From Solirubrobacterales bacterium (GTDB taxonomy: Bacteria > Actinomycetota > Thermoleophilia > Solirubrobacterales > 70-9), in NCBI GenBank assembly GCA_036269775.1, contig DATBDU010000035.1, forward strand, positions 41,961 to 105,960: 64,000 nucleotides of DNA, given 5' to 3'. This document shows, piece after piece, positions 7,452-16,285 of this stretch. The stretch's first letter is position 1; every line of letters starts with the position of its first letter. The position numbers and the translations under genes were made by a program. The notes under the pieces are model-generated. The model made no database searches. It had not been told where the DNA came from and saw only the letters and a program-made list of their open reading frames with translations.

Positions 7452-7522
7452 GGCGCCTTGGCGGAGTGGCTACGCAGCGGCCTGCAAAGCCGTTTACACC
7501 AGTTCGATTCTGGTAGGCGCCT
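7452..7522 (+). tRNA. tRNA-Cys (GCA)
   Basis: Cloverleaf read by eye: acceptor GGCGCCT/AGGCGCC, anticodon arm GCGGC-CTGCAAA-GCCGT, T arm ACCAG-TTCGATT-CTGGT, discriminator U73 (typical for Cys). CCA is not encoded. Confidence 0.9.
7478..7522 (+). repeat. attL: 45-bp direct repeat (3' part of tRNA-Cys)
   Basis: CGGCCTGCAAAGCCGTTTACACCAGTTCGATTCTGGTAGGCGCCT is identical at 7478-7522 and 15159-15203. Confidence 0.9.
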
Positions 7523-7588
7523 CTAGCTTTGCGAGCGGTGTTTGGCTTGCTAGAGCGCTTTGAACGGCCTTCTCAGGCCGCTTGCTCA

Positions 7589-7858: not shown

Positions 7859-8242
7859 TTGACGATCTACCTGGAGCTTGGCGATTACTGCGAGATCGCC
7901 GCTGAGTTGCTCGGTACGACTCCCGAGCAGATCGGGCGCTTGCCCAGGATCGCCCTTGCGGATTCGGCCCTTGCCACGCCTCAGGCGGGCTTCGGCGATC
8001 AGGACGCATATCCCACGCTCGTAGAGAAAGCGGCGGTTCTGGTCGAGCATCTGGCCCGCAACCACCCGCTGCCGGACGGCAACAAGCGAGCCGCTTTTCT
8101 CTCCGTGTGGCTGTTCCTTGAAGCCAACGGCCGACCGTTCGCTGGGGAAGATGCCGACACGGACGTTCCGATGGTGGAGAAGATCGCGGCTGGCGAAGCG
8201 ACTCCCAACGAAATCATCAGATGGCTGGAGAGTCGTACCTGA
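7859..8242 (+). CDS. doc: Doc (death-on-curing) / Fic-family toxin
   Basis: 127 aa with the degenerate Fic motif of Doc proteins, HPLPDGNKRAAF. TTG start at 7859. Confidence 0.8.
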   Translation: MTIYLELGDYCEIAAELLGTTPEQIGRLPRIALADSALATPQAGFGDQDAYPTLVEKAAVLVEHLARNHPLPDGNKRAAFLSVWLFLEANGRPFAGEDADTDVPMVEKIAAGEATPNEIIRWLESRT

Positions 8243-9176: not shown

Positions 9177-9664
9177 TGCTGGTCCCTGGTCGTTTCAGTA
9201 GCGCCGCAATCGGCATCGGCAATGGCGAGGTGGAGGTGCGCTTGAGCGACGGCGGCAACTGGCAGGTCAAGGTGAGGTTGACCGAGGGTGAGGACTGGCG
9301 TCTGCTCTGCCGAGGCCATATCGACGGCACCATCTTTGAGACCGCCACCCAGGACGCTGAGGAGCCGATCACGGTCGGCCCGCTGATGGTCGATCCGGCC
9401 GGTCGCCGGGTCGAGGTACGCGGGGGTGAGGTCCGCCTTACCGCGCAAGAGTTGGAAGTAGTGGCGCTGCTCGCCACCGACCCCGGCCGCGTCTTCACCA
9501 AGAAGGAGTTGCTGCGGGAGATTTGGGGGAGCAAAGATGGCGGCGCGATCCGCACTCTCGATTCACACGCGAGCCGCGCCCGCTGCAAGCTGCGCAAAGC
9601 CGGGGCCGAGGGCTTCGTCGTCAACTGCCATGGGATCGGCTACTCGCTCCGCGAGGGCCGCTGA
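9176..9664 (+). CDS. OmpR/PhoB-type winged-helix DNA-binding protein without a receiver domain
   Basis: The C-terminal LTAQELEVVALLATDPGRVFTKKELLREIWG...IRTLDSHASRARCKLRKAG...GIGYSL matches Trans_reg_C. The N-terminal 65 aa or so are unrecognised. The track ORF 8867-9664 has an implausible Pro/Arg-rich N-extension, so I start at ATG 9176. Confidence 0.7.
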   Translation: MLVPGRFSSAAIGIGNGEVEVRLSDGGNWQVKVRLTEGEDWRLLCRGHIDGTIFETATQDAEEPITVGPLMVDPAGRRVEVRGGEVRLTAQELEVVALLATDPGRVFTKKELLREIWGSKDGGAIRTLDSHASRARCKLRKAGAEGFVVNCHGIGYSLREGR

Positions 9665-9756
9665 CTGATAGCCGGGTGATTGGGGGCCGCCATCCTCAGC
9701 TGAGCGGAGGGCGGGGACCGTCGCGGTGCCGCTCCCGACGAAAGAAGTGGGACAAA

Positions 9757-10011
9757 TCGCCGCCTCATTCGACATAGGGGTGATGAGGCACGAAATCGGC
9801 TCTCACGACCAAGCGGCAGCAGTCGTCCTACCCCGTCCCCAAACGAACACTTGTCGAAAAACGGGGGCCACTTTCGAGGTTCGCCCCCCTGTAGAGCAGA
9901 TGGATATTTGCTCTCCCCTCTCGCTTCGTCGCCCGCCTCCGGGTAGGCCGACCAACCTTTTTGCCGGATTTCGCCGCCTCGTTCGACAGGGAGGTGTGAG
10001 GCTCGGAATCG
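9757..10011 (+). repeat. Two imperfect direct repeats of about 42 bp (9757-9798 and 9971-10011), each containing a hairpin
   Basis: TCGCCGCCTCATTCGACATAGGGGTGATGAGGCACGAAATCG versus TCGCCGCCTCGTTCGACAGGGAGGTGTGAGGCTCGGAATCG (about 34/42 identical). The inner stem GCCTCA/TGAGGC becomes GCCTCG/TGAGGC (A-T to G-T). Confidence 0.7.
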
Positions 10012-10268: not shown

Positions 10269-10460
10269 ATGTTCTCTATCCGCTTCTCCTCTACGTCCCT
10301 TGCACTCGACGCCTGCGCTATCGCCTCCGCGCTGGCTCCACAACGCTCCACTACCGAGGCAACCGCCCCCGTAGTGCCAGCCCCACAGTCGGTTTCCGGC
10401 TCGGCGCTGGCTTCGCAGCACCTTGCCGTCAATCGACCGCTGCCCTGGGGGTCAGCGTGA
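10269..10460 (+). CDS. Small hypothetical protein (63 aa) coupled to the replication-relaxation gene
   Basis: Strong Shine-Dalgarno AAGGAGG at 10254-10260, 8 nt before ATG 10269. Stop TGA at 10458-10460 overlaps GTG 10457 of the next gene. Confidence 0.55.
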   Translation: MFSIRFSSTSLALDACAIASALAPQRSTTEATAPVVPAPQSVSGSALASQHLAVNRPLPWGSA

Positions 10461-11356
10461 ACTGGCAAGCAGGCTCGCGCCTGCGACTGCCAGAGGCAAC
10501 GGTGGAGATCATCGCCTCCGTCGGCGAGCATCGCATCCTCTCGACCGCCCAGGTGCGCGCGATCCGCTACCCGGATCGCAGCCTGCGCCGCACCCAGCAG
10601 GCGCTTGCTTACCTTGAGCGGGCGGGCTTGGTCGCTTATGTCGAGCGCCGCCGCACTCCCCGCCGCATGTGGTTCCTGACCGACGCCGGCGCTGACGCCG
10701 TGGTTGCCGGCGGCGAAATCAAGGAGCGGCCGAAAGTCCTCAGCCCGAAACAGGCAGCGGGTCCGCTGACCGCCCATACGCTCGGCGTCAACGAGGTCGG
10801 GGTCAGTTTCCTGCGGGCGGCGCGCGAGCGCGGCGACGATTTCGCTCCGCTCTCCTGGCGGCATGAGGTTGCCCATCCCCTCAACCATGGGCGCGGCCGC
10901 GCTCGCCGAACCCTGATCGCCGATGCGGTCTTCACCTACGTCCGCCCCGAGGACCGGCAGATCGCCGTCTACCAGCGCTTCGTTGAGGTGGATCGCGCCA
11001 CCCTCTCGGTTGAACGGCTGGTGGCCGAGCTTGCGCGCTACGGCCAGCTTTACCGGGCGCAGGACAAGCGCGACGGCGATCCGATTTGGAGCTACTACTA
11101 CCGGAGCTTCCCGCCTGTGATCTGCGCGTTGGCTGGCGCATCGCGCAAGGCGCTTGGTCGGCGGCTCGACGTCGCCGCCGCGCTGCTCGCCAGTCATCCC
11201 GCGCTCGACCGTGCCTATGACGTGGAGATCTACTTCTGCTTGCTGGACGACCTCAAGGATCGCGGCCCGTTCGCCCCGATCTTCTATGCGGTCGGCGAGC
11301 CGCAGCGCGCGGTGAACTGGATCGGTGAGGGCCGCGAGCTCGAGGACGGGCGGTGA
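10457..11356 (+). CDS. Replication-relaxation family protein (Replic_Relax-like)
   Basis: 299 aa. The N-terminal winged-helix-like HRILSTAQVRAIRYPDRSLRRTQQALAYLERAGLVAYVER...WFLTDAGADAV followed by AHTLGVNEVGVSFL fits my recollection of PF13814. Confidence 0.6.
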   Translation: MNWQAGSRLRLPEATVEIIASVGEHRILSTAQVRAIRYPDRSLRRTQQALAYLERAGLVAYVERRRTPRRMWFLTDAGADAVVAGGEIKERPKVLSPKQAAGPLTAHTLGVNEVGVSFLRAARERGDDFAPLSWRHEVAHPLNHGRGRARRTLIADAVFTYVRPEDRQIAVYQRFVEVDRATLSVERLVAELARYGQLYRAQDKRDGDPIWSYYYRSFPPVICALAGASRKALGRRLDVAAALLASHPALDRAYDVEIYFCLLDDLKDRGPFAPIFYAVGEPQRAVNWIGEGRELEDGR

Positions 11357-11367
11357 GGGGGAGAGGC

Positions 11368-11583
11368 ATGGCGAAGAAGCTCCCGGCATCCATCCCCCGC
11401 ATCGCCTTCACGCCTGCTGAGGCTGCGGCTGCAATCGGAGTTGGCCCTGACTTCTTCGACGCCAACGTAGCCCCGCAACTGCGCCTGATCCGGCGTGGCC
11501 GCAAGCGGCTCGTCCCGGTGCGCGAGCTTGAACGATGGGTGGCTGAAAACGCCGATGAGCCGATTGTCGAGCAACTCCGCTGA
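11368..11583 (+). CDS. xis: Excisionase-like HTH DNA-binding protein
   Basis: 71 aa. IAFTPAEAAAAIGVGPDFFDANVAP...LVPVRELERWV is typical of MerR-type excisionase (HTH_17) proteins. It lies directly upstream of int, with GGGGGAGAGG before ATG 11368. Confidence 0.7.
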   Translation: MAKKLPASIPRIAFTPAEAAAAIGVGPDFFDANVAPQLRLIRRGRKRLVPVRELERWVAENADEPIVEQLR

Positions 11584-11624: not shown

Positions 11625-12803
11625 ATGGCTGTAGTCAAGAAGCGACATTCAAGGAACTGCCCGGCGAAGCGCGGAAAGCGGTGCAGCTGTAGTGGCGGCT
11701 ACCGCGCCGAGGTCTATTCGCCGAGAGACGAGAAGAAGATCCGCAAAACTTTCACCCACAGGGCAGACGCGCAGTCCTGGGCGGCCGAAGTGAAACGTGG
11801 AGTCGATCTCGGAACCCTTCGCGCCCCGACGAAACGCACCCTTGGCGAAGCCGCTGCCGCGTGGCTGGCGGGAGCCGACGCCGGGACGATCCGCAACCGC
11901 TCCGGTAATGGTTACAAGCCCGCGACCCTGCGCGGCTATCGGCAGGCACTTGAGGATCATGTCCTCCCGGCGCTCGGCGGCCGAAGGATGAACACGATCA
12001 CCACCTCCGATCTGCAAGCCCTCGTTGATCGTTGGAGCGCTGAGGATCAATCGCCCTCCACGATCCGCAACTCCATCAAGCCCTTGCAGGCGCTCTATCG
12101 CCGCGCCCGCGCCCGCGAAGGTCTTGCGGTCAATCCGACCCGCGACCTGGAACTGCCAGCACCGAACGCGAAGGAGGTTGAGATCGTCGCCCCCGATGTA
12201 GCCGCGCAGCTGCTCGACGTGCTGCCCGTCGAGGATCGCGCCTTGTGGGCCACTGCTCTCTACGCGGGCTTGCGTTACGGCGAGCTTCGCGCTCTCCGCT
12301 GGGCGGCGGTTGATCTGGCGGGTGGCTCGATCCGCGTAACGGAATCATGGGACCCGAAGGAGGGGGCGATCGCGCCGAAGACCAAGAACTCCCAGCGGAC
12401 GACGCCGCTCCCAGGTCTTCTTCGCGACTACCTGATGGAGTATCGGATCGCAGCTTGTGAACCTCCTGTCGAGGCTCTTGTTTTCGGCGACAAAATCGGC
12501 AAGCCGTTCCAGGCCGCGACGATCTACCGGCGAGCGGATCGGGTATGGAAGGCTCGGGCATTGGGTCGGCTGCGGCTGCACCAAGCCCGCCATACCTACG
12601 CCTCGTTCATGATCGCGGCGGGAGTCAACGCTAAGGCGTTGTCCTCCTTCATGGGCCATTCCTCGATCAAGGTTACGTTTGACCTGTACGGACACTTGAT
12701 GCCGGGCACCGAGGCTGAGGCAGCGGCGCTGTTGGATCGGTTTCTGCGGACCGATGTTCGGGAGGCCGAGGCTGCGGTCAGGCAGGCGGTTACCTCGCCC
12801 TAG
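11625..12803 (+). CDS. int: Tyrosine-type site-specific integrase
   Basis: 392 aa. The C-terminal catalytic region LRLHQARHTYASFMIAAGVNAKALSSFMGHSSIKVTFDLYGHL (R..H..R..Y signature) and the earlier GLRYGELRALRW box are present. Confidence 0.9.
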   Translation: MAVVKKRHSRNCPAKRGKRCSCSGGYRAEVYSPRDEKKIRKTFTHRADAQSWAAEVKRGVDLGTLRAPTKRTLGEAAAAWLAGADAGTIRNRSGNGYKPATLRGYRQALEDHVLPALGGRRMNTITTSDLQALVDRWSAEDQSPSTIRNSIKPLQALYRRARAREGLAVNPTRDLELPAPNAKEVEIVAPDVAAQLLDVLPVEDRALWATALYAGLRYGELRALRWAAVDLAGGSIRVTESWDPKEGAIAPKTKNSQRTTPLPGLLRDYLMEYRIAACEPPVEALVFGDKIGKPFQAATIYRRADRVWKARALGRLRLHQARHTYASFMIAAGVNAKALSSFMGHSSIKVTFDLYGHLMPGTEAEAAALLDRFLRTDVREAEAAVRQAVTSP

Positions 12804-14047
12804 CCCTGCTGGTGAAGGGCTTGGGCGATCTCGGTACCTAGCTGCGCCACGCTCCCCGCAGGTTCGTCAAAGTCGACAACGATGTAGCCCATCTCTTTGG
12901 GCTTGCCGTCTTTACCGGCGACCGAGATTGCGCTCGGCCAGCCTCGCCGAGCGTACTCCGAGGTCACCGATGGACTAAGAGCGTCGGGCGGGATGAGAAG
13001 TACCTGCTTGGGCGGCCTGGGTTTAACAACGTCTTTCGGATGGCTTCGGGCCTGCCGTCGAACTTTGCTGACAACCTCCTGCGACTTCCCGTAGATGAAG
13101 CGCTCCGCCCATCCATAGGTCATTAGGTTCAGGCGGCGGACTTGAAGGCGGTCCGAGGTAGCGACAGTGAGGCTGTGGTCTCCCGCCACCATGAACAGCC
13201 CTTTGGTCGGGCTTATCGGATAGAAGCTGATCGCCTCGGCAGAACTCTTCCATCCGTTCCCGCTCCACGGATGTTGAGGCGCGTGGTCGACCATTGAGAT
13301 CGGACGGTCCGACGTGACGAACTCGGCCCCTTCCGCGGTCAGGACGATCCAGTCAAGGGAAAAGATCTCCCCCGCGATCTCGGTGGCTACCTTCATGATT
13401 TGAGCCAAGGCCCCAGTGCGAGGGGACTCGTAGCCAACTCTTCCTTCTAGAAGCTGGTTCTGCATTCGCTTCCGCATGTCTTCCAGTTCGTCCAACGACA
13501 TGGACTGCGTGACGTCGCAATCGAACTCTTTGCGGAACGCCTCCAAACTCGACAGCCCCATGCTCGCCTTCAACTCGAAAGCTGCCTGGCGCATACGCTC
13601 GGTGCGGATAAGTCCTTCCGGCGTCCTGCTCTCTTGAAAAGCAAGGAAGAAAGCGATGGTGAGGCGATTCTGTGGCGATATCGAACCGGGGTCCTCGCAT
13701 AGGTTGTCCAAGGCGGGCGCGGCGTGCTTCTCGACGATTGAGAAGAACGACTCAACCGTCCGAGACAGCTCCCCTTGGTGATCCTCGTAGGTGTAGAGAT
13801 CTTTTACGAAGGCGACATCATCGGGCCGAGTTCGCTTTGGTGCCCCTGATCGAACATCGAGTTGGTGCATCCATCCCTTGCGCGATCCCGGAGGTTGAGC
13901 GAATCGAGCAAGCGCGAAGGCTGGAACAAAATGATGACGACGCGCAGACGAGGGCGGCAACTGTGCCTTACCCGCCGCGATTTCCCCCATCTCCGATAAG
14001 AGGGGCGGCTCCGCAAAGAAACTCGGGTCTAAGGACTGCGAGGGCAC
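12800..14047 (-). CDS. DUF4238-like protein (cargo gene)
   Basis: 415 aa. The N-terminal RRHHFVPAFALARF resembles the HY(V/I)PxFYLxxF signature I associate with DUF4238. Lower GC than the host. Its stop overlaps the int stop region (convergent). Confidence 0.6.
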   Translation of the reverse strand: MPSQSLDPSFFAEPPLLSEMGEIAAGKAQLPPSSARRHHFVPAFALARFAQPPGSRKGWMHQLDVRSGAPKRTRPDDVAFVKDLYTYEDHQGELSRTVESFFSIVEKHAAPALDNLCEDPGSISPQNRLTIAFFLAFQESRTPEGLIRTERMRQAAFELKASMGLSSLEAFRKEFDCDVTQSMSLDELEDMRKRMQNQLLEGRVGYESPRTGALAQIMKVATEIAGEIFSLDWIVLTAEGAEFVTSDRPISMVDHAPQHPWSGNGWKSSAEAISFYPISPTKGLFMVAGDHSLTVATSDRLQVRRLNLMTYGWAERFIYGKSQEVVSKVRRQARSHPKDVVKPRPPKQVLLIPPDALSPSVTSEYARRGWPSAISVAGKDGKPKEMGYIVVDFDEPAGSVAQLGTEIAQALHQQG

Positions 14048-14075
14048 AACTCAATGATGGAGCCATTCTCGGCGG

Positions 14076-14113
14076 ATGGCACCTCCTGACGCCTGGCACC
14101 GAGGCTGAGGCAG
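14076..14113 (+). pseudogene. Relic of an integrase 3' end between the two cargo genes
   Basis: GGCACCGAGGCTGAGGCAG (14095-14113) is identical to 12705-12723 inside int. The surrounding frame reads GWHLLTPGTEAEA, compared with YGHLMPGTEAEA at the int C-terminus. Confidence 0.45.
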
Positions 14114-14145
14114 TTCCGATGGAGCCTGACTTCCGTTATATCCGG

Positions 14146-15027
14146 CTAGGGCAATTCAGCAACCCCCACAAACCGACCATGGCCAAGGAAGCCGCATCGG
14201 TCGTCGCGGATGGCAGGCACCCAATAAATGAACGCACCGTTCGCGATCCGCTGGAGCCGATCTGCTCCTCGCTCTCTCCAGTCGCGTAGCTGCCACATGA
14301 GGTTCATGACTCGACGCGAGATCGTCATTGAGGTTCCGCCAAGCGTTTGGCCTCGGGGGCTGTAGACGTGACCGTCGATCATCATTGCTTGGGTAAGGCC
14401 CGCCTTCCTCAACGTCGCTCTCTCCGATTCGTCCCATTCTTGGGTGAGGCCAATGGCGTAGTTGGAGCGGAGAAAAAGTTCGGCTTTCGGCCAGTTGCGG
14501 ACTGCTCTCTCTGCAACAGACCTCTTCGTCCAGCTTCCATGGGGGAAGATCCCGATGAGGTAGGCGTCGTCTGGGCGGAGGACGACGAACAAAAGATCAC
14601 GAGTCCTCTTGGCGAATCCATCGCCCTGGATCAACATGGAGAGGTGGAGATGGTGGACTCCCCATTCCGCCAACAGCAGATCGAGATCCTTGCGTAGATG
14701 ATGGGGAGTTCCCCTGCGCCGGTCAAGCGCAACCTTCACGCTGCGGCTCAGGAATGGCTTCAAATCGTCGCCATCCTTGATCCGCTGGATCAGCGACTCT
14801 AGGGCTTTCGGTGCTTCTCCGGCTTCCATCTCCTTCTCTAGCTCTCGGGAGACGTGGACCTGGCGCGGCCGGGGCGATGGGCAGCGGTAGCGCCAGTTTC
14901 CGTAGACGGTTAGGAGGTCACGTAGCCCCAGGCTTTCTAGCTCGCGCTTCTGCCCATTCTCGCTGGGAAGCTCGGCTAGGGCGTGGCGGCGTAGGCGTTT
15001 CTCCAGACGCTCAACGAGATGCTCCAT
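14146..15027 (-). CDS. Hypothetical 293-aa protein (cargo gene next to attR)
   Basis: I start at ATG 15027 (MEHLVERLEKRL...). The track's 340-aa version extends to within 10 nt of the attR repeat, into the 131-bp spacer that holds the ACTGGCCCA arm repeats. Contains RRGTPHH and WGVHHLHLS motifs. No family recognised. Confidence 0.6.
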   Translation of the reverse strand: MEHLVERLEKRLRRHALAELPSENGQKRELESLGLRDLLTVYGNWRYRCPSPRPRQVHVSRELEKEMEAGEAPKALESLIQRIKDGDDLKPFLSRSVKVALDRRRGTPHHLRKDLDLLLAEWGVHHLHLSMLIQGDGFAKRTRDLLFVVLRPDDAYLIGIFPHGSWTKRSVAERAVRNWPKAELFLRSNYAIGLTQEWDESERATLRKAGLTQAMMIDGHVYSPRGQTLGGTSMTISRRVMNLMWQLRDWRERGADRLQRIANGAFIYWVPAIRDDRCGFLGHGRFVGVAELP

Positions 15028-15091
15028 GGTTCCCAGAGTAGGAACAGGGAAGGGCGGAACAGGAACCAAGCAGCTGCACTCGGCTGGACAA

Positions 15092-15114
15092 ACTGGCCCA
15101 TTGACTGGCCCACG
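15092..15114 (+). repeat. Right-arm tandem ACTGGCCCA repeats of element 1
   Basis: ACTGGCCCA at 15092-15100 and ACTGGCCCACG at 15104-15114, in the same orientation as the left-arm copies and about 45 bp from attR. Confidence 0.7.
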
Positions 15115-15158
15115 CTCGGGCAAAACCGCTCTACAAAGCGGATAATCGGCATATGTAC

Positions 15159-15203
15159 CGGCCTGCAAAGCCGTTTACACCAGTTCGATTCTGGTAGGCG
15201 CCT
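15159..15203 (+). repeat. attR: second copy of the 45-bp tRNA-Cys 3' segment
   Basis: Identical to 7478-7522. The sequences diverge immediately outside the repeat on both sides. Confidence 0.9.
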
Positions 15204-15214
15204 TTCGCTCCGCC

Positions 15215-16285
15215 TCAAAGTAGGGGGATGATGCCAAGCGTGCCGTCAGCCAGAGTGACTTTGAGACCCGAGGGCGCGGTTCCGCTCTGGTAGAGGGCAT
15301 CCAGTCGGCCCAGCGCGCTTTCCAGCACGATCGCGTTGACATGGCCGGCGAACGGTGAGACGTAGCCGGGAATGAGACCGAGGACGTCGCCGTCGAGGGT
15401 CAGCCCGGGTGGGGTTTCGGGGGCTTTGAAGACGGACGTGTAGTAGTCCGTGGGTATGCCCGCGAGAGCCAGGGTGGCGACCATCTGATCGCTCTGGTCG
15501 GAGGTGACCTCACCGTCGAGGACGCCGTGGGAGACGACCACGCCTTTCAGGCCCGACGATTTCATCTGGCTGGCGCGGAGGACGGGGCTGCGGTTGAGGT
15601 AGGTGGTGAGGTTGAGGATCGGCGAGCCCATCTCGGCTTCGATGTCGGCTTTGGCGTTGGCGCCGGTCGTCTGTATGCCACCCAGCGGGAGCAGCGAGAT
15701 CGCCGTGGCGTCGGTGTAGATCTCGGGCACATTGGTGACCCCGGCGACGTCGAACCAGTAGTCGAACAGGGGGCTGCCGTCGGTCCGGGTCGCGTGTTCG
15801 GAGACCGCCAGGCCGGTCATGTTGCCACCCATGCTGACGCCGAAGGCGGAGTTGACGAACCGCGTCGGGTTGAGGCTCTGGCAGGTGCTATTGAAGAGGC
15901 GGGTCGCGGCGATCGAGTCAGCGGCGCCCTCGCTTACTTTCCAGCCTCGCGAGCTGTTGCCGGTCGGCCCTTCGAGGTCGACGGTGCCGTGGTAGTCCAT
16001 CGCCACCACGATCACGCCGTCGCGCTGGGCGATACCGGGCATCAACGGGACCATCGACTGGGCGGTGGTGGGGTATCCGTGCCCGAGCACGACGATTCCC
16101 TTCGGGGTCGTTGCGGGCAGCGAGTAGTAGCCATAGGTGGGGACGCCGCCGACGGTGATGTTGAGGGTCTGGATCGAGGTCGGTTCACCCGTGCAGGCGG
16201 GGGGTTCGGCCTGGGCCGTCCCGCCGAGGGCGATCAGCGACGAAACCACCGATACCAGCAGTACTGCGACTCGCGACCTCCGCAT
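15215..16285 (-). CDS. Secreted alpha/beta hydrolase (esterase/lipase-like)
   Basis: Signal peptide MRRSRVAVLLVSVVSSLIALGGTAQA and nucleophile-elbow-like GVSMGGN. Confidence 0.7.
   Translation of the reverse strand: MRRSRVAVLLVSVVSSLIALGGTAQAEPPACTGEPTSIQTLNITVGGVPTYGYYSLPATTPKGIVVLGHGYPTTAQSMVPLMPGIAQRDGVIVVAMDYHGTVDLEGPTGNSSRGWKVSEGAADSIAATRLFNSTCQSLNPTRFVNSAFGVSMGGNMTGLAVSEHATRTDGSPLFDYWFDVAGVTNVPEIYTDATAISLLPLGGIQTTGANAKADIEAEMGSPILNLTTYLNRSPVLRASQMKSSGLKGVVVSHGVLDGEVTSDQSDQMVATLALAGIPTDYYTSVFKAPETPPGLTLDGDVLGLIPGYVSPFAGHVNAIVLESALGRLDALYQSGTAPSGLKVTLADGTLGIIPLL

Follow-up and report, generated by a model that had tools for sequence, protein, structure and literature searches.

The window analysed here, a 64,000-nucleotide (nt) stretch of contig DATBDU010000035.1 from a Solirubrobacterales-like actinobacterium, contains a 7.7-kb integrative element bounded by a tRNA-Cys gene and a copy of its 3' part. 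With an integrase recognised by Pfam, a tRNA-Cys target and exact 45-nt attachment (att) cores, for which the chance expectation is 0 matches, it is a tRNA-integrating tyrosine-recombinase element, and the space from its integrase stop codon to attR is occupied by two reverse-strand genes that point in the same direction and are separated by 98 bp. A first-pass annotation of the window had placed both genes between the integrase (int) gene and attR, and we confirm their coordinates and lengths: one encodes a DUF4238 protein of 415 amino acids (aa), the other a 293-aa protein that we assign below to the PD-T4-7 family. Loci of relatives that were compared with the window carry L-numbers, and same-site comparisons were made by blastn. 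The features that bear on these two genes are as follows:

7452-7523, forward strand: tRNA-Cys (GCA), the integration target (ARAGORN)
7478-7522, forward strand: attL core, the 3' 45 nt of tRNA-Cys (exact 45-nt repeat)
11625-12803, forward strand: tyrosine integrase, 392 aa (Pfam Phage_integrase, E 4.1e-19)
12697-12723, forward strand: 27-nt repeat, reference copy, where the conserved integrase core ends (repeat search)
12800-14047, reverse strand: DUF4238 gene, 415 aa, GTG start (open reading frame list, Pfam)
12807-14078, no strand: DUF4238 cassette, shared with L083 at 85% DNA identity (blastn, junction sequences)
14079-14113, forward strand: integrase 3'-end relic, with its 27-nt core at 14087-14113 (repeat search, junction comparison)
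14146-15027, reverse strand: PD-T4-7-family gene, 293 aa, ATG start (open reading frame list, PADLOC)
14142-15060, no strand: PD-T4-7 cassette, common to L081, L082, L002 and L001 at 80-85% identity (blastn)
15159-15203, forward strand: attR core, 45 nt identical to the 3' part of tRNA-Cys (repeat search)

Both cargo genes are foreign to the host in base composition, with 59-60% G+C and 69% G+C at third codon positions (GC3) against 68-69% G+C in the flanks and a GC3 of 86-93% in host genes; the count of 30 G+C in the 60 nt at 13441-13500, given in the first-pass annotation, is exact. In close relatives the same chromosomal site, which lies between DUF2630 and the genes for G6PD and an acetyltransferase, holds elements of different content. 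L083 has the order attL-Doc-DUF4238-attR, without an integrase and without a PD-T4-7 gene, and the block that it shares corresponds to window positions 12807-14077; L082 and L002 have the integrase, other cargo, the PD-T4-7 gene and attR and lack DUF4238, as does L001, a small integrase-less derivative that carries the PD-T4-7 gene. Between them, the integrase 3' end and the 293-aa gene enclose three different contents (DUF4238 in the window, a 230-aa protein in L082, and a 220-aa plus a 102-aa protein in L002 and L001), just as the earlier description of this space as a cargo slot implied. The PD-T4-7 block also occurs alone, corresponding to window positions 14142-15060 and again without DUF4238, in a different island of L081 that lies beside a tRNA-Met gene identified by tRNA scan.

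The junctions of the cassettes bear the marks of this exchange. A relic of the integrase 3' end had been reported between the two genes, and it is there: positions 14087-14113 are identical to 12697-12723 at 25 of 27 sites, a match found 0 times in 100 shuffles. It starts where the homology of the DUF4238 cassette stops (14078/14079), its other end corresponds to integrase position 12723, and it is at ~12723-12730 that the window integrase ceases to be homologous to those of L082 and L002, so that the last ~27 integrase codons belong to the variable part. These coinciding breakpoints indicate that recombination where the integrase core ends has reshaped the slot, and each cassette is preceded by a copy of a ~35-nt integrase-end sequence. 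Because two independent breakpoints (14113 and ~12723-12730) fall at the same integrase position, the integrase-core end (~12697-12723) might be read as a cassette-exchange site and the slot as a small, integron-like array of single-gene defence cassettes; in parallel, the long-form DUF4238 protein, with its fold that has no PDB relative and its extra C-terminal domain, might be a defence enzyme of new chemistry. We regard this more far-reaching proposal as improbable.

Adjacent and co-directional genes with so short an interval could also be the two components of a single operon, and at L075 (5401-7446, from Candidatus Eremiobacteraceae), 1 of the 80 other fetched loci, a PD-T4-7-like gene likewise adjoins a DUF4238 gene, of 322 aa. 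Yet this explanation is largely refuted already and retains next to no probability: close relatives carry either gene on its own at the same chromosomal site, the remaining 79 of the 80 fetched loci yielded no DUF4238 gene, the L075 pair is convergent, the integrase relic lies between the two window genes, and the E. coli prototypes of both families function as single genes. No conserved partner open reading frame accompanies the 293-aa family, the largest cluster of neighbouring frames within 900 bp amounting to 3 syntenic loci of 80. The DUF4238 and PD-T4-7 genes are two independent, swappable single-gene cassettes, and the earlier view of them as separately acquired modules holds.

In their conserved flanks (integrase 3' end and att) and interchangeable cargo, these elements resemble P2/P4 and other integrase-adjacent defence hotspots, but the window family has a Replic_Relax backbone and actinobacterial tRNA-Cys and tRNA-Met sites, and its breakpoint lies inside the integrase 3' end, leaving a relic of 27-35 nt. 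Three att-flanked mini-islands are without an integrase (L083, 9770-11991, with DUF4238 and Doc; L088, 6541-9518, with DUF4238 alone; L001, 1580-4174, with a PD-T4-7-like gene); they are similar to the integrase-less cis-mobilisable mini-islands termed CIME and have the appearance of larger elements that deletion has reduced and left cis-mobilisable. The DUF4238 gene is the only cargo in those of L083 and L088, which is consistent with action as a single gene. A tRNA-Met hotspot 3' of AspRS/HisRS/NicX genes (80% identity in the flanks) is occupied by a PD-T4-7-like gene in L081 (8625-10882) and by a DUF4238 gene in L087-L089 (6563-9338), the latter within a 2.9-kb att-flanked mini-island; no attR of the L081 island was found within 12 kb.

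The 293-aa protein, called unrecognisable in the first-pass annotation, is readily recognised by the PADLOC models for PD-T4-7 (PDLC04066, E 2.7e-37; PDLC04065, E 6.2e-24; both judged without PADLOC coverage thresholds), and we are nearly certain that it belongs to this family. PD-T4-7 was found by functional selection in the E. coli pangenome as a single 352-aa gene of E. coli UMB0103 (RRN43039.1) and was grouped by its authors with toxin-antitoxin-like abortive-infection systems under the label 'RelE toxin-like', which rested on a 51%-probability HHpred match to YafO_toxin and on weak phage-sheath matches (Vassallo et al. 2022, PMC9519451). Beyond the homology to the PADLOC hidden Markov models (HMMs), the window gene is like the prototype in being a single gene without a partner, in being carried on mobile DNA, and in its probable RelE/YafO-like centre and weak tail-sheath similarity, suggested here by structure and there by HHpred. 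It differs in length (293 vs 352 aa), in its C-terminal domain as judged by profile comparison, and in its setting, the int-attR slot of a tRNA-Cys element in an actinobacterium; and whereas the enterobacterial prototype has a phage phenotype, the window gene is known from its sequence.

At 50% identity the family forms 3615 clusters (E <= 1e-3), with members in Actinomycetota, Alpha- and Betaproteobacteria, Bacillota, Myxococcota and other phyla. Homologues begin at the same M-x-x-L-V-E-R-L-E as the 293-aa form, and a 340-aa TTG form of the reading frame, which would reach into attR, was rejected. Both cargo genes are under purifying selection similar to that on the integrase: the ratio of nonsynonymous to synonymous substitution rates (dN/dS) is 0.15-0.19 for the 293-aa gene, 0.14 for the DUF4238 gene against its L083 copy and 0.13 for the integrase. 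At L058 (8042-10813), L020 (9959-11248) and L044 (7143-8372), crude reading-frame calls of 923, 429 and 409 aa include a PD-T4-7-like region, and these longer products could be fusions or artefacts of calling open reading frames in high-G+C DNA.

An AlphaFold2 model of the 293-aa protein, built with 46 homologues, is a single body (predicted local distance difference test, pLDDT, 92.8; predicted template modelling score, pTM, 0.89) composed of an N-terminal helical region, a probable RelE/YafQ/YafO-like core at ~54-180 and a C-terminal domain at 185-293. The top Foldseek match in the PDB is YafQ (probability 0.99, E 0.03, target-normalised template modelling score, TM, 0.60), followed by HP0894, other YafQ entries, Cami1, RelE, YoeB, ParE-type toxins and several phage tail-sheath chains; this list independently reproduces both hints, RelE-like and sheath-like, of the original PD-T4-7 paper. 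The order of secondary-structure elements (beta 56-59, two helices, beta 125-128, 144-150 and 154-162, helix 169-178) fits, in the model, a RelE topology with an insertion. Among 238 relatives at 30-96% identity, S94, D116, H126, H128 and H163 are invariant (100%) and W45, R48, R55, H125, R141, W166 and W179 are conserved in at least 95%. The invariant histidines lie in HHLHL, on the first core strand, and in FPH-GSW, where the last core strand ends; VAHIHLA, HLVYCQ and WLLIAILKPEPH of YafO have colinear counterparts in h-H-l-H-L, LLFVVL and AYLIGIFPH.

All motifs quoted in the first-pass annotation (HHFVPAFALARF, RRGTPHH, WGVHHLHLS and DDAYLIGIFPHGSW) are present in the translations. Its suggestion that RRGTPHH forms an R-x4-H motif did not survive the comparison with the 238 relatives, and a HEPN R-x4-6-H site was rejected: R104/R105 and H109/H110 are conserved in less than 85% of them, and the region is gapped and variable.

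RelE-type toxins cleave mRNA in a ribosome-dependent manner and so arrest growth. The RelE-superfamily mRNA interferases (YafQ, YafO, YoeB, RelE and HP0894), together with Cami1, are the best structural matches to the central domain, and the His-rich strands of the 293-aa protein resemble YafO motifs. Those toxins, however, are ~90-130 aa long and have a separate antitoxin, and Cami1 is controlled by a CARF domain, whereas the window core lies inside a single 293-aa protein that has no antitoxin gene. A type II RelE/ParE toxin-antitoxin system was rejected as well: the protein is 293 aa and multi-domain, it has no conserved neighbour, and the gene is hemmed in by the 98-bp interval with the integrase relic downstream and attR upstream. 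An RNase assignment is well motivated, not proven, and we consider it an even call.

The 415-aa protein had been annotated as DUF4238-like, and the Pfam search leaves no ambiguity: PF14022 matches with E 3.4e-34 and 119 bits (cut-off 27) over profile positions 1-280 of 281. The DUF4238 domain occupies residues 37-323; an extra domain of ~90 aa C-terminal to it is modelled as a folded alpha/beta unit by AlphaFold2 (pLDDT 92.3 for the protein) and has no Pfam match when searched in isolation. The GTG start of the 415-aa form is supported because a relative in L083, 88% identical, has ATG at the equivalent position and the N-terminus MPSMPLNPDLFAEP is kept; the public gene call is a 396-aa form with ATG at 13990.

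The validated member of this family is Rst_DUF4238 (E. coli TA007, P2 hotspot, pFR101), which gives strong T7 resistance and has no known molecular function (Rousset et al. 2022, PMC9122126; the 309-aa reference protein used here is from Table S2 of that paper), and a 2024 survey still lists it among the systems that could not be assigned to a known domain family. Profile alignment by hhalign relates the window subfamily to the TA007 protein with 98.1% probability (E 1.2e-13, 21% identity, 269 columns), pairing residues 14-293 of the 396-aa form with 2-280 of the E. coli protein, and both contain ARxHHF, RTP and F(V/I)TSD(R/N)P. The two are also alike in being the single-gene cargo of an integrase-bearing mobile element. 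The window copy had been described as about 100 aa longer than expected, and at 415 vs 309 aa it is, the excess lying mainly in the folded C-terminal domain, with a longer N-terminus as a further difference; nor does it reside in a P2-like prophage. It is a member of the Pfam family that falls outside what defence-annotation tools call Rst_DUF4238.

Searches of NCBIfam and PHROGs gave no match to either cargo protein, tblastn of both against a phage collection found neither, and a PDB sequence search with the profiles of both families returned nothing meaningful. One viral protein matched the DUF4238 protein (E 2.8e-8): it is encoded by the P2-like Stenotrophomonas phage Smp131, is 298 aa long and is uncharacterised.

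To place the 293-aa family in its genomic context, we surveyed the nearest protein on each side (140 proteins). The commonest Pfam families among these neighbours are Phage_integrase (6) and DDE transposases, with resolvases, SIR2_2 and RmuC also present. PADLOC recognises, among others, SIR2-pAgo partners, ThsA-like proteins, a retron-type reverse transcriptase and members of PDC candidate families. At 13 of 60 loci there is a tRNA gene no more than 2.5 kb away, where a rough expectation of our own from tRNA density is ~4. These associations with mobile and defence genes, rather than with mainly housekeeping contexts, accord with the first-pass annotation. The DUF4238 subfamily has integrases, tRNA genes, Mrr, SLFN-AlbA_2 and Fic-MazE genes as neighbours. 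More distant DUF4238 relatives, at ~24-27% identity, were found on 647 plasmid records (e.g., NZ_CP091655.1, 35360-36031), of which 598 are predicted conjugative, mostly from Escherichia, Salmonella and Klebsiella.

Genes in such company might instead serve the element itself, through maintenance (addiction or stabilisation) or competition between elements, with a toxin-like protein that would punish loss of the element or exclude its rivals. Stabilisation and exclusion genes are common on plasmids of the kind that carry DUF4238 relatives, a Doc/Fic toxin gene sits at the other end of the window element, and the 293-aa protein has a toxin-like core. Addiction, however, requires a labile antidote, and both proteins are single polypeptides with no conserved partner gene; mini-islands L083 and L088 carry their genes without any mobility backbone to stabilise; and phage resistance was a direct phenotype of the E. 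coli homologues. We therefore find maintenance rather improbable as an explanation for the pair.

Each of the two genes adds a new member to a known defence family validated in E. coli, and their setting is a typical integrase-adjacent cargo hotspot; the anti-phage role itself we infer from homology and context. We put at roughly 0.6 the probability that the int-attR slot carries two independent single-gene anti-phage cassettes that work as proposed here. A defence role is likely for the 293-aa protein; for the DUF4238 protein the balance is equal. The 293-aa protein would be a self-contained, autoinhibited single-chain toxin, with H126, H128 and H163, together with D116, S94 and R55, as the catalytic site of a RelE/YafQ/YafO-like ribonuclease core that the N-terminal helical region and the C-terminal domain keep silent. 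A phage product would free the core from this silencing, and the freed core would cut mRNA on the ribosome, so that translation stops and the infection is aborted. As a working analogy, CapRel(SJ46) similarly combines a toxin with an autoinhibitory or sensor domain in one polypeptide and acts by abortive infection, although its toxin fold is unrelated to the 293-aa core. The 415-aa DUF4238 protein would most likely act alone, as an enzyme whose active site may be formed from the family-wide motifs R-H-H-F, E, R-T-P and S-D-R/N-P, and its lineage-specific ~90-aa C-terminal domain may be a regulator or sensor.

Several results weigh against this interpretation. For the 293-aa protein, the Foldseek E-values are 0.03 or higher, and the query TM is ~0.2 because the RelE-like matches cover a third of the protein; hhalign against the YafO family profile is marginal (E 0.01 over 26 columns), the comparison of the family profile with single YafO and YafQ sequences is not significant (both sequences were checked, giving Pfam scores of 135/109 bits and database clusters at 97% identity), and the PDB sequence search with the family profile likewise gave no match. 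Pfam matches neither the whole 293-aa protein nor its N-terminal, core or C-terminal parts, and the PDLC04066 alignment joins only residues 44-250 to profile positions 45-250 of 337, so the C-terminal domain differs from that of the E. coli prototype. Most neighbours in the survey are unrelated or housekeeping proteins, with 109 Pfam families among the 140. As for DUF4238, the window protein is too diverged to be matched at E <= 1 by the PADLOC model DUF4238-Pers (PDLC03000), on which the TA007 protein scores 718 bits; an identity of 21% makes the transfer of function from Rst_DUF4238 uncertain; and Foldseek of the model against the PDB gave no credible match, so that the chemistry proposed for a fold with no PDB relative is a guess. 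The earlier label of defence-type modules thus stands as regards homology to two validated E. coli systems and a mobile, defence-associated context, and is weak as regards the PADLOC defence model for DUF4238.

The same weak Foldseek and YafO/YafQ comparisons leave room for a PD-T4-7 defence protein whose core is not a ribosome-dependent RNase but a DNase, a hydrolase of nucleotides or small molecules, or a non-catalytic RelE-like fold as in ParE-type toxins, which appear in the match list; the invariant Ser/Asp/His set could be read as a hydrolase-type triad. Yet the top structural matches, YafQ and HP0894, are His-dependent mRNases, the three conserved motifs are colinear with those of YafO, and the original HHpred analysis of PD-T4-7 also put YafO first. 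We consider a core of this other kind unlikely and retain the autoinhibited RNase as our preferred account of the 293-aa protein.

The backbone of the element consists of the Doc/Fic gene, regulators, Replic_Relax, a small HTH gene and the tyrosine integrase. Its remaining features, and the occupants of the corresponding slot in the relatives, are:

7859-8242, forward strand: toxin gene of the Doc/Fic family, on the attL side of the element (Pfam Fic, E 4e-13)
10457-11356, forward strand: Replic_Relax (replication-relaxation) backbone gene (Pfam PF13814, E 1.9e-26)
11353-11583, forward strand: small HTH_17 protein gene just upstream of int (Pfam HTH_17, E 0.0018, under the cut-off)
15092-15113, forward strand: two direct ACTGGCCCA repeats just inside attR (sequence comparison)
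L082, 10906-11598, reverse strand: slot occupant, 230-aa protein
L002, 11259-11921 and 10908-11216, reverse strand: slot occupants, 220-aa and 102-aa proteins
L001, 3027-3689 and 2669-2962, reverse strand: slot occupants, 220-aa and ~100-aa proteins

The Doc/Fic gene, which has partial PADLOC PDC-S23 matches, is a third conflict-type module of the element and is treated here as context only. It is kept in L083 (11313-11708) beside DUF4238, where a 47-aa open reading frame precedes it, and at L086 (2474-3145) a Doc/Fic gene is preceded by a MazE-type antitoxin. By its weak match and position, the small HTH_17 protein is probably an excisionase or regulator. The ACTGGCCCA repeats, of which L083 has three copies (reverse complement, ~9860-9895), are candidate arm-type integrase-binding sites; they fall in the stretch that must contain the promoter of the PD-T4-7-like gene. 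A scan of 12600-15300 for promoter and terminator consensus sequences gave no informative result. The slot occupants of L082, L002 and L001 have no Pfam, PADLOC or PHROGs match and are candidate defence genes by their position. Just outside attR, L082 has a DUF4160/DUF2442 pair (9218-9768, reverse strand) where the window has an alpha/beta-hydrolase-like gene, so the chromosomal flank of the att site is also variable.

The findings do not overturn current views; the locus illustrates a known pattern cleanly and is, as such, a fairly ordinary find. What it adds is structural support and a set of invariant residues for PD-T4-7, a long-form DUF4238 lineage, and a comparative picture of cassette exchange. 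The confident model and its five invariant residues provide a concrete catalytic-site hypothesis for a family whose toxin assignment formerly rested on the 51%-probability HHpred match. Long-form relatives such as the window protein escape the defence-specific DUF4238 HMM, whose scope is narrow, and this matters for the annotation of defence systems. Two defence families that are validated but mechanistically unsolved in E. coli are extended to Solirubrobacterales-type Actinomycetota, where both are interchangeable cargo at tRNA-linked hotspots.

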